This document shows, in pieces, positions 14,326-16,651 of a stretch of DNA of 64,000 nt. Both the position numbers and the translations under genes were made by a program. The notes beneath the pieces are model-generated. The model saw nothing but the letters and a program-made list of their open reading frames with translations. It was not told the DNA's origin and ran no database searches. Location: NCBI RefSeq assembly GCF_050920415.1, contig NZ_CP169309.1; one strand, given 5' to 3'. Each line of letters begins with the position of its first letter. The first letter of the stretch is position 1. Origin of the DNA: Escherichia coli (lineage in GTDB: Bacteria > Pseudomonadota > Gammaproteobacteria > Enterobacterales > Enterobacteriaceae).

Positions 14326-15043
14326 TGAAGAATTGATAATTGCCGTGCCGAGCAGAGAAAATGAATTCCGGAAACTTTCTCTTAAGCAAGATAAAAGACA
14401 TATTAAGATAAATGAAAAAATAAAAACACTGATTAGGATTGGTAATAAAAATATTACAATAAGGCAATGAATTTTAAAAAGGATTTGAAGTTTAATACAG
14501 TCATGAAAAAGAGAGGGCAAAGCCGACCCCGCCCTCTCCCTTCATGCACTGATAAGCCTCACTAATAGTGAGTGTTAGCAGCGCGTACCACTGTATGCTA
14601 GACCTGAAAAATATAATCTCAGTCAGTCCCAGATGCAACCTTTAACACTTCAACGCAACAAATTAAACAACGAATAGCCACAAACGTGTAGACAGTGCAC
14701 TGATACGGATAAAAGTAACGCTCCTGAATTGCTCAATCAATGATATATACCCTGTTTTACTGACATATCTGACAGCGGGTGGATTTCCTTCAATTATTGA
14801 TATAACACCATACGCACTACATCTGTCTCCACCAGAATATGAGGTGAAATTGTTGCGCACCGGTTAATCCGGGTGTACTGGTCAAACTGTTTTTACGGTG
14901 CGCCTGTTTTATAGCCTTCAGTTGCGCAATGCGTCGACTTCGCATGGCTTTCCTCATGACTGCCGCTTTACCATTGCGCAATTCGCCGATGTAGTCGGTG
15001 CCCCCCGGAAAATCAAACGGTTCTGGTTGTTCTCTGTACTGCT

Positions 15044-16651
15044 TCAGGGCGTATAGCCCGATACCTCAGCAGACGGGTTTTCCCCGGAGCGAGGCCTCTG
15101 GGGTTCATAATTAATCGTACAGCCAAAGTACCAAGCGTTCGGCCGGCTGGGCGGCCGGCTGGGCGGCCGGCTGGGCTTGCTGGTCAGTTTGTTCCAACAC
15201 ACATTAAGCATCTCCAGTCCGCTGGGCAGGCGGTCCGGCAGGCTGGTCAGCTGGTTATTACTCACATCAAGCACCTTCAGCCTGACGGGCAGCACCGGCA
15301 GATGGATCAGCTGGTTATTACTCACATTAAGCGTCCTCATATAGCCGGGCAGCTCCGGCAGGCTGCTCATGAGGTTAAAACGCACATCAAGCGTCACCAG
15401 CCCGGCGGGCAGCGCCGGCAGGCCGGACAGCTGATTATTACTCACATCAAGCATCACCAACCCGGCGGGCAGGACCGGCAGGCTGCACAGCCGGTTTCTA
15501 CTCACATCAAGCTTCTCCAGACTGGCGGGCAGCACCGGCAGGCTGCACAGCTGGTTTTTACACACATAAAGATGCTTCAGCCCGGCGGGCAGGACCGGCA
15601 GGCTGTCCAGCAAGTTTCTTCTCACATCAAGCTCCTCCAGCCCGGTGGGCAGCTCCAGCCCGGTGGACCTGAAGAGATTGTTTCCACCCACATTAAGGTG
15701 CTTCAGCCCGGCGGGCAGGACAGGCAGGCTGCACAGCTGGTTTCTACTCACATCAAGCTTCTTCAGCCCGGCGGGCAGGACCGGCAGGCTGTCCAGCAAG
15801 TTTCTTCTCACATAAAGCTCCTCCAGCCCGGTGGGCAGGACCGGCAGGCTGCACAGCTGGTTTCCACTCACATCAAGCTTCTCAAGCCCGGCGGGCAGCT
15901 CCGGCAGGCTGGTCAGCATCAGATTTGCCAGTTCTAGTTCCAGTGCCGAAGCTCTATTGCATGCTCTATTGTATATATATGCCTTCACCCTACTAAGAGC
16001 TTCTGCCCTGTATTCCCCGGGAGCATTCACCTTGGCCCAGGCACGCCATGCCGTTATCTGGGCCACCCAGTCCGGGACTTTATCGATATACTTCCGGAGC
16101 AGTTTACAGTGTGGTTTATCGCCAGTCAGAGTTACAGACAACGCTACTTTTGGCATACCTGGTATGTACATTGTCATGATGGGCTCATCGACGACGGACA
16201 GGTTCAGTAAGAGCCCTATCGGCGGGTCTTCCTTTTTGGCCGGGATGGTGTAAATATTGGGATTGTCTGTGGACTCGAAGCTCAGGAACATATTTGTCAG
16301 CTGATCACTTTTGGTCAAACATTGATCGTGAAGGAGGGAACGACAAACCATGTGGATGAAAGTTTCTTCGGATGCGTTGTGTAATATGGTTGTATAATCT
16401 GATGAGGATAAATCATCCCAGTTTTCTATCTTGCTGGTCTTGCTGGTCTTGCTGGTCTTACTGGTCTTGCTGGTCTTGCTGGTCTTGCTGGCTGCGATAT
16501 CGTTTAATGAATTGTTTAATAAATCGGTTAATACATAGCCGATATGAAGACGGTTTGCTGTCTGGCTGGATTCATCGGGTGCCCAATATTCATTTTCATT
16601 GGGTTTAACATATACACCGGATGCACCGGATAAAGAAGTAGGCTGGAGCAT
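15044..16651 (-). CDS. Leucine-rich repeat protein with IpaH/SspH/YopM-type LPX repeats; about 230-aa N-terminal domain of unknown function, no NEL E3-ligase domain
   Basis: 535 aa. About 12 tandem 20-residue repeats (LPAGLxxLDVSxNQLxSLPV), preceded by the family cap motif (AWRAWAKVNAPGEYRAEALSRVKAY...LELANLMLTSLPELP). N-terminal (TSK)n and C-terminal (PSRP)3 low-complexity runs; GAGGT Shine-Dalgarno before the ATG. Confidence 0.8.
   Translation of the reverse strand: MLQPTSLSGASGVYVKPNENEYWAPDESSQTANRLHIGYVLTDLLNNSLNDIAASKTSKTSKTSKTSKTSKTSKIENWDDLSSSDYTTILHNASEETFIHMVCRSLLHDQCLTKSDQLTNMFLSFESTDNPNIYTIPAKKEDPPIGLLLNLSVVDEPIMTMYIPGMPKVALSVTLTGDKPHCKLLRKYIDKVPDWVAQITAWRAWAKVNAPGEYRAEALSRVKAYIYNRACNRASALELELANLMLTSLPELPAGLEKLDVSGNQLCSLPVLPTGLEELYVRRNLLDSLPVLPAGLKKLDVSRNQLCSLPVLPAGLKHLNVGGNNLFRSTGLELPTGLEELDVRRNLLDSLPVLPAGLKHLYVCKNQLCSLPVLPASLEKLDVSRNRLCSLPVLPAGLVMLDVSNNQLSGLPALPAGLVTLDVRFNLMSSLPELPGYMRTLNVSNNQLIHLPVLPVRLKVLDVSNNQLTSLPDRLPSGLEMLNVCWNKLTSKPSRPPSRPPSRPNAWYFGCTINYEPQRPRSGENPSAEVSGYTP
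15141..15176. repeat. Perfect 12-bp tandem repeat x3 (ggccggctgggc) encoding PSRPPSRPPSRP at the LRR protein C-terminus
   Basis: Three identical units counted directly in the sequence; in frame. Confidence 0.85.
16430..16492. repeat. 9-bp tandem repeat x7 (cttgctggt) encoding the (TSK)n tract near the LRR protein N-terminus
   Basis: Seven consecutive 9-bp units with two single-base variants; in frame. Confidence 0.85.

Follow-up and report, generated by a model that had tools for sequence, protein, structure and literature searches.

A dead internal reverse transcriptase fragment from a group II intron very probably forms the 3' end of a truncated leucine-rich repeat gene in Escherichia coli

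Fragmentation is a documented fate of bacterial group II introns and, in introns of the RmInt1 type, it typically involves the loss of the 3' terminus, as described in PMC4181065. The same work describes FRE652, an RmInt1-related fragment of Sinorhizobium (Toro et al. 2014, PMC4181065), and the locus reported here resembles it in being an inactive, lineage-fixed fragment situated by rearranged genes in a rearranged region. The locus lies in a 64,000-nucleotide stretch of Escherichia coli chromosomal DNA (contig NZ_CP169309.1 of assembly GCF_050920415.1; hereafter the window), immediately 3' of a gene encoding a leucine-rich repeat (LRR) protein, where the first-pass annotation had noted a short minus-strand gene remnant. 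The analysis presented below indicates that positions 14892 to about 15139 of the minus strand are very probably a dead piece from the interior of the reverse transcriptase (RT)/maturase gene of a group II intron, which codes for the intron-encoded protein (IEP), and the sole effect of this piece would be to provide the 3' end and the stop codon of the truncated LRR open reading frame (ORF). The fragment is placed as follows.

14892..15139, minus strand: pseudogene fragment of an RT/maturase (IEP), recognized by DNA identity, tblastn and an ltrA match

The identity of the remnant was established through its closest homologues. A phmmer search of 5.8 billion proteins returned a single match, a 117-aa "hypothetical protein" of Salmonella (hereafter P0001) with an RVT_1 domain (69% identity, E = 8.8e-15; E = 3e-26 in the pairwise comparison). 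P0001 contains the RT catalytic motif YADD, and the curated family that it matches best is TIGR04416, the group II intron RT/maturase family, with 57 bits. When P0001 was compared with plasmids by tblastn, about 4,600 records were matched; among the matches listed, the annotated and named features underlying the match were ltrA or group II intron RT/maturase genes, and the top match was plasmid CP053333.1 of S. enterica subsp. diarizonae (locus L011). Positions 3119-4582 of this locus hold an uninterrupted ORF of roughly 490 aa that scores 340.8 bits against TIGR04416 (cut-off 300), and a match to the Rfam ribozyme family group-II-D1D4-6 (RF02005, 164 bits) ends 95 nt upstream of this ORF. Since the ORF passes the family cut-off and is preceded by a ribozyme match, the L011 element is a bona fide group II intron. 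The L011 plasmid carries in fact two different group II introns, which are convergent and about 660 bp apart (2801-4582, plus strand, and 5240-6951, minus strand); each has its own D1-D4 ribozyme match, and the IEP of the second is interrupted by an in-frame stop.

Aligned with L011 4115-4324, the window sequence 15087..14892 displays 81% DNA identity over 211 columns. At the protein level, tblastn of the L011 IEP against the whole window matched one place only, in the form of two linked pieces in two frames (E = 7e-20), with no further IEP similarity elsewhere in the 64 kb. Residues 341-402 of the IEP align at 15062..14892 with 66% identity, and residues ~315-341 align in a second frame that ends at 15061, where the window reads APGKTRLLRY and L011 reads HPGKTRLLRF; this upstream portion of the homology (15061-15100) runs beneath the 3' end of the LRR ORF. 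The remnant is also 43% identical to residues 355-407 of an E. coli plasmid ltrA product. These alignments place the remnant at residues ~320-402 of an IEP of roughly 490 aa, where the RT palm ends (motifs 6-7, with the conserved blocks PGKTRL and FDFLG) and the thumb/X region starts. Only the first ~35 residues of the latter (GELRNGKAAVMRKAMRSRRIAQLKAIKQAHRK), corresponding to the first basic helix, are found in the remnant before the homology stops at the 14892 junction. The YADD motif, RT motifs 0-5 and the rest of the maturase domain are absent from the remnant, and the DNA upstream of it is that of the LRR gene. Group II intron RNA families likewise gave zero Rfam matches between 12500 and 17500, even at E<=1; at this permissive threshold the scan yielded chance-level microRNA and RNase P fragments only, and the same Rfam library detects RF02005 beside the intact L011 relative.

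An RT fragment in this neighbourhood could also stem from a defence-associated RT (DRT/UG, retron or Abi) once present at the hotspot for defence systems in the adjacent element. Hotspot flanks of elements that carry Gabija, Hachiman or CBASS are indeed homologous to the neighbouring DNA (14325-14891), and P0001 gives weak matches to the Drt2, Drt3a and UG models. However, the top defence model, Drt2, reaches 22 bits on P0001 against 57 bits for the group II model, and the DRT, retron and Abi models score well under the group II model and far under their own cut-offs. The 81%-identical full-length relative, moreover, scores above the equivalog cut-off of the group II model and is immediately preceded by an Rfam D1-D4 ribozyme match, and the annotated and named feature among the plasmid tblastn matches listed is ltrA. 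Judged on the relatives P0001 and L011, homology to curated group II IEPs thus exceeds that to other RT classes, and we regard a defence-related origin, which these comparisons have already largely refuted, as very unlikely.

The group II intron RT fragment bears two lesions and ends in a sharp junction on its 3' side.

15060..15064, minus strand: +1 nt insertion breaking the RT frame, around 15062, its placement ambiguous by a few bases
15019..15020, minus strand: 15-nt (5-codon) deletion relative to intact relatives, seen as a gap in the alignments
14891..14892: sharp 3' recombination junction, at which RT-derived ...CACCGTAAA meets unrelated element DNA, AACAGTTTGACC...

Both Salmonella sequences show a one-base gap opposite window position ~15062, and it is there that the RT homology changes frame. 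The 15-nt deletion accounts for the loss of the residues LGKPG, ahead of the FDFLG motif. At the 3' junction (14892|14891), which reads GCGCACCGTAAAAACAGTTTGACC, the Salmonella IEP genes are matched as far as 14892, and from 14891 on the homology is to E. coli elements of the UMNK88 type. The 5' boundary is soft, DNA similarity being traceable to about 15124 and plausibly to 15139.

With regard to the reading frame that had first drawn attention to this region, three-frame translation of the minus strand confirmed that it exists as described. The frame is open from 15065 to 14820 (82 codons) with a stop at 14817-14819, its translation from stop to stop (...C, stop, GIGLYALKQYREQPEPFDFPGGTDYIGELRNGKAAVMRKAMRSRRIAQLKAIKQAHRKNSLTSTPGLTGAQQFHLIFWWRQM, stop) is the very peptide quoted in the first-pass annotation, and the LRR stop codon (TGA, 15044-15046) falls inside it in a different reading frame. 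The ORF list gives its ATG/GTG/TTG-initiated part as 14817..14981 on the minus strand, with a TTG start and 54 aa. An open stretch of 82 codons is not unusual by itself, since many ORFs of comparable length are present in non-coding frames of the window; what raises this frame above chance is its homology, as seen by phmmer, pairwise comparison, tblastn and DNA identity. No E. coli gene product for the RT-remnant frame was returned by the phmmer search of 5.8 billion proteins, and no separate gene was assigned to the remnant by the NCBI annotation pipeline (PGAP) in the annotated regions inspected.

The RT homology bears out the view that a displaced gene from a mobile genetic element has left a remnant at this place, and at the same time redraws its limits and its nature. 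Of the interval originally proposed, 14830-15060, the portion from 14892 upward is RT-homologous, with homology extending to ~15139, whereas 14830-14891 belongs to a different segment. Because RT homology ends sharply at 14892, the quoted peptide from N31 on (SLTSTPG... to the stop) lies outside the RT gene, and the ...NSLTSTPG end that had been taken for part of it is a read-through into unrelated DNA past the 14892|14891 junction. Nor do we see here the C-terminal end of a gene, as had been supposed, but an internal piece (residues ~320-402) from which the first ~320 and the last ~90 residues of the protein are gone. The first-pass annotation had also missed the upstream homology, which continues in the second frame, across the frameshift, under the 3' end of the LRR gene.

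The consequences of the fragment are best seen in this LRR gene, the relevant features of which are given below.

15044..16651, minus strand: IpaH/SspH/SlrP-type LRR gene without a NEL domain, 535 aa (ORF list and translation)
15140..15176, minus strand: 12-bp tandem repeat, CCCAGCCGGCCG x3, read as SRPPSRPPSRP (TRF: period 12, 3.1 copies, 100% match)

The LRR protein has an N-terminal cap and LPX-type repeats of 20 residues. Its Pfam matches are LRR families only, the NCBIfam SspH2 and SlrP models match it over their own LRR parts alone, and it is 41% identical, cap included, to an 861-aa LRR+NEL protein of E. fergusonii (P0057). Pfam gave no match to the NEL domain (PF14496) in the LRR protein, and two NEL domains used as tblastn queries had no match anywhere in the window. 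The last LRR repeat ends abruptly at ...NKLTSKPS(L/R)PPS and is followed by the 12-bp repeat, located exactly where the truncated last LRR meets the RT remnant, and then by RT DNA. The final 31 codons of the gene (15047-15139), NAWYFGCTINYEPQRPRSGENPSAEVSGYTP, and its stop codon are read from the RT remnant out of frame, and the resulting chimeric tail includes the peptide stretch ...SRPNAWYFGCTINYEPQR.... Other alleles contain two 12-bp units (KPS[L/R]PPSRPN), the first of which spells LPPS and not RPPS, so the expansion of the repeat in the window is specific to its lineage. The RT-derived tail itself is shared by the E. coli LRR alleles that were fetched (357-531 aa), with the exception of one prematurely truncated allele of 339 aa (P0056).

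We note that the LRR gene is strongly length-polymorphic in E. coli (339-535 aa), with most alleles in frame. Alleles differ by whole LRR units of 60 bp (20 aa) and, near the N-terminus, by the copy number of a 9-bp repeat encoding KTS, KNS or KSS, the polymorphic stretches lying at 15179-15917 and 16429-16491 of the window. The number of LRR units ranges from ~5 to 14 across alleles, most of which keep the same start and the same RT-derived stop. RefSeq names one allele, WP_186225405.1 (NZ_CM148325.1; locus L001, 4150-5676), a "NEL-type E3 ubiquitin ligase domain-containing protein"; this name was probably carried over from the similarity in the LRR part, the gene lineage being one without NEL. 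In strain EC42405, an IS100 insertion adjoins the LRR gene.

In those syntenic E. coli genomes for which the flanking DNA was inspected, the LRR gene has as its neighbour a gene for a 654-aa ankyrin-repeat protein (17344-19308 in the window, plus strand). This protein had no significant match in NCBIfam or PADLOC, and PADLOC reported zero defence-system matches for either it or the LRR protein. The E. coli defence-island survey PMC10121019 makes no mention of hipA, group II introns, LRR proteins or ankyrin proteins. In look the LRR-ankyrin pair is effector-like, yet it is placed in what was formerly the cargo space of a mobile element.

The remnant might encode a small functional protein, such as the 54-aa TTG-initiated ORF at 14817-14981, or the RT stretch might be a functionally required tail of the LRR protein. 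In favour of such a function, most by far of the E. coli alleles fetched keep an LRR ORF that runs uninterrupted across the fragment, although repeat number changes extensively, and each of these alleles has the tail. Against a small functional ORF, however, stand the want of any E. coli product in the protein search and the frameshift that breaks the RT frame. As to the tail, its 31 residues show three amino-acid polymorphisms (A/V, G/D and G/R) in a handful of nearly identical alleles, suggestive of little constraint, and the density of variable sites is higher in the remnant (8 in 14892-15139) than in the adjoining DNA (1 in the next 92 bp). We therefore find either form of functional requirement most improbable. 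A programmed frameshift uniting the two RT frames was also considered and rejected, since the RT lacks its upstream as well as its downstream part and no functional product could be made in this way.

A less direct role for the fragment is conceivable, albeit unlikely: the rearrangement may have given rise to a YopM-like protein with LRRs only and no NEL, which E. coli has kept, the intron fragment having been exapted as its coding 3' end. The open frame in most alleles, the ankyrin-repeat neighbour and the location in the former cargo or hotspot of an element with anti-phage relatives may be read in this sense. If this were true, the exapted LRR protein would be a candidate effector, decoy or defence sensor.

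Whatever the fate of its product, the fusion is shared. The remnant is present in 17 of the 5,426 complete E. coli genomes, in one copy each, under an LRR gene annotated as "hypothetical" or NEL-type, and an identical frameshift and deletion were found in the five other E. coli copies that were aligned. R32_14_1F and 2013C-4282 are among the carrier strains. Since the tail, the lesions and the once-per-genome occurrence are common to the carriers, the joining of LRR and RT sequences was a single old event. As to ancestral forms, a distant blastn of the remnant for the parent intron in the same 5,426 genomes returned only the 17 remnant copies, and an exact 23-mer scan of species-representative genomes returned nothing. 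The nearest NEL-bearing relatives of the LRR protein, P0057 and P0075, are lambdoid prophage cargo, and no RT was seen near either gene when their genomic context was checked.

We propose that a group II intron was formerly located in this mobile-element-rich region and that it lost its ribozyme domains, as well as the first ~320 codons of its ORF (and with them YADD) and the last ~90, through deletions or illegitimate recombination. What remained would have been a piece of ~250 bp with its +1 frameshift and 15-nt deletion. At the left break, this piece would have become attached to an IpaH/SspH-like LRR gene within its last repeat, which was thereby truncated, so that the gene would have come to be without the NEL ligase domain and to end via 31 out-of-frame RT codons; at the right break, the piece would have met one arm of an integrase-bearing element that has decayed. 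That the LRR ancestor possessed a NEL domain is suggested by its family membership. We found no evidence that the intron was an agent in assembling the block, in which it is a passenger reduced by deletions or recombination.

Several points weigh against the interpretation of the remnant as an intron RT fragment with this history. The reconstructed remnant peptide has zero Pfam or NCBIfam matches; because it is too short and degraded for a direct family match, its classification depends on its closest homologues. Similarity at the 5' end is weak, so that the boundary there (15124-15139) is only approximate. Finally, neither an intact intron at the locus nor an LRR-NEL gene of the same lineage was found, nor was an intermediate LRR allele in the protein collection, and in consequence the history of the locus is an inferred one.

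The DNA on either side of the LRR gene and the intron RT fragment further documents the rearrangements that took place in this region.

14674..14891, minus strand: 218-bp segment unrelated to RT, 96% identical to locus L003, 4001-4218
14325..14673, minus strand: conserved flank of an integrase-bearing element, 95% identical to locus L012, 5001-5348
16896..16958, minus strand: 63-bp direct repeat, upstream copy, in the middle of an Xre-type helix-turn-helix (HTH) gene
14263..14325, minus strand: 63-bp direct repeat, downstream copy

From the first of these segments come the final 24 codons of the ORF reported in the first-pass annotation, together with its stop (from N31 on, NSLTSTPG...RQM and the stop). 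Elsewhere in E. coli, the same segment is found between the gene for a SEC-C/ATP-binding protein and a Gabija cassette, in elements of the UMNK88 type, and in another strain it lies beside an empty hotspot. The flank at 14325..14673 holds the 3' fragment of a gene for a 186-aa hypothetical protein, and in other strains PGAP marks a partial hypothetical gene at this place. Sequences 14673..14325 and 14325..13900 match non-adjacent parts of one kind of element, which has an integrase and, depending on the strain, Hachiman, CBASS or Gabija. Upstream of the LRR gene, 17073..16896 matches the promoter and N-terminal half of the element's Xre-type HTH gene. The two copies of the 63-bp repeat are about 92% alike, and between them lies a 2.6-kb block that comprises the LRR gene together with the RT remnant and the hotspot flank. 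From the upstream copy the sequence runs on into the N-terminal half of the HTH gene (16862-17041, minus strand); the C-terminal half (14076-14291, minus strand) is reached in the same way from the downstream copy. This pattern of a split HTH gene and a direct repeat suggests homologous recombination, of the Campbell type or unequal, between related copies of the element.

Comparison with loci L003 and L012-L016 shows that 13316-14891 is one arm, now decayed, of an E. coli element that bears an integrase; the window keeps the flanks only, beside hipA. Intact relatives of this arm carry Gabija, Hachiman, CBASS or nothing at a variable hotspot, which has the SEC-C/ATP-binding protein gene on one side and a small HTH gene on the other. 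A gene for a 64-aa MbcA/ParS/Xre-antitoxin-like protein of the DUF2384 type (13898-14092, minus strand) overlaps the end of the split HTH gene, and no toxin partner of the RES/ParT type is visible near it. The order of genes in syntenic E. coli genomes is that of an ECSE_1600-family autotransporter, hipBA, the small MbcA/ParS-like gene, the LRR gene (as "hypothetical protein"), the ankyrin-repeat protein gene and a fimA-type operon, with IS481 and HTH pseudogenes annotated nearby.

Judging from these sequence relationships, the block is a recombination mosaic of decayed mobile-element DNA, and the segment matches and the direct repeat uphold what the first-pass annotation had supposed in this respect. 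Its further suggestion that the remnant derives from the C-terminal end of a transposase, integrase or other recombinase can practically be dismissed: the region is rich in mobile-element debris, with IS481 and HTH pseudogenes near the locus in syntenic genomes and an integrase encoded by relatives of the adjacent element, but all homology of the remnant is to RTs, the homologue is best matched by TIGR04416, searches of Pfam, NCBIfam and the 5.8 billion proteins brought up no similarity to DDE, serine or tyrosine recombinases and no transposase or integrase family or protein, and the aligned part is internal (residues ~320-402 of ~490).

For annotation purposes, the remnant is thus to be described as a group II intron RT pseudogene fragment, and neither left unannotated nor labelled a transposase, and the neighbouring gene as a 3'-truncated, IpaH/SspH-like LRR gene whose C-terminal 31 residues come from out-of-frame intron DNA. 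Because the fragment marks a single ancestral rearrangement common to all carriers of the island, it may be used to trace the spread of the latter. The remnant reveals no new mechanism and is, in itself, an ordinary relic.

Set against known systems, the remnant is closest to LtrA-like IEPs of the TIGR04416 family, the nearest intact one being that of L011, with which it shares 81% DNA and 66% protein identity and the block ...PGKTRLLRF...FDFLGF...; it differs from them in retaining ~80 of roughly 490 codons, in a broken frame and with no ribozyme domains. The Salmonella RT pseudogene P0001 belongs to the same intron lineage (80% DNA identity) and has likewise decayed with frameshifts, but is longer (IEP residues ~258-495, in two frames), keeps YADD, and occupies another locus, between fimbrial operons and with no LRR gene. 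The LRR protein is akin in its repeats and cap to the NEL E3 ligases IpaH, SspH and SlrP, with 41-58% identity to LRR+NEL proteins of E. fergusonii, Salmonella and E. coli, and differs from them in having no NEL and in stopping after 31 RT-derived codons. In contrast to fragments of the RmInt1 type, which according to PMC4181065 typically lack the 3' terminus, the E. coli remnant has lost both ends and consists of an internal ORF piece only, which lies out of frame in the coding 3' end of its neighbour. The locus is therefore one more example of intron fragmentation, unusual only in that an internal piece of the ORF survives alone and is read out of frame by the adjoining gene.

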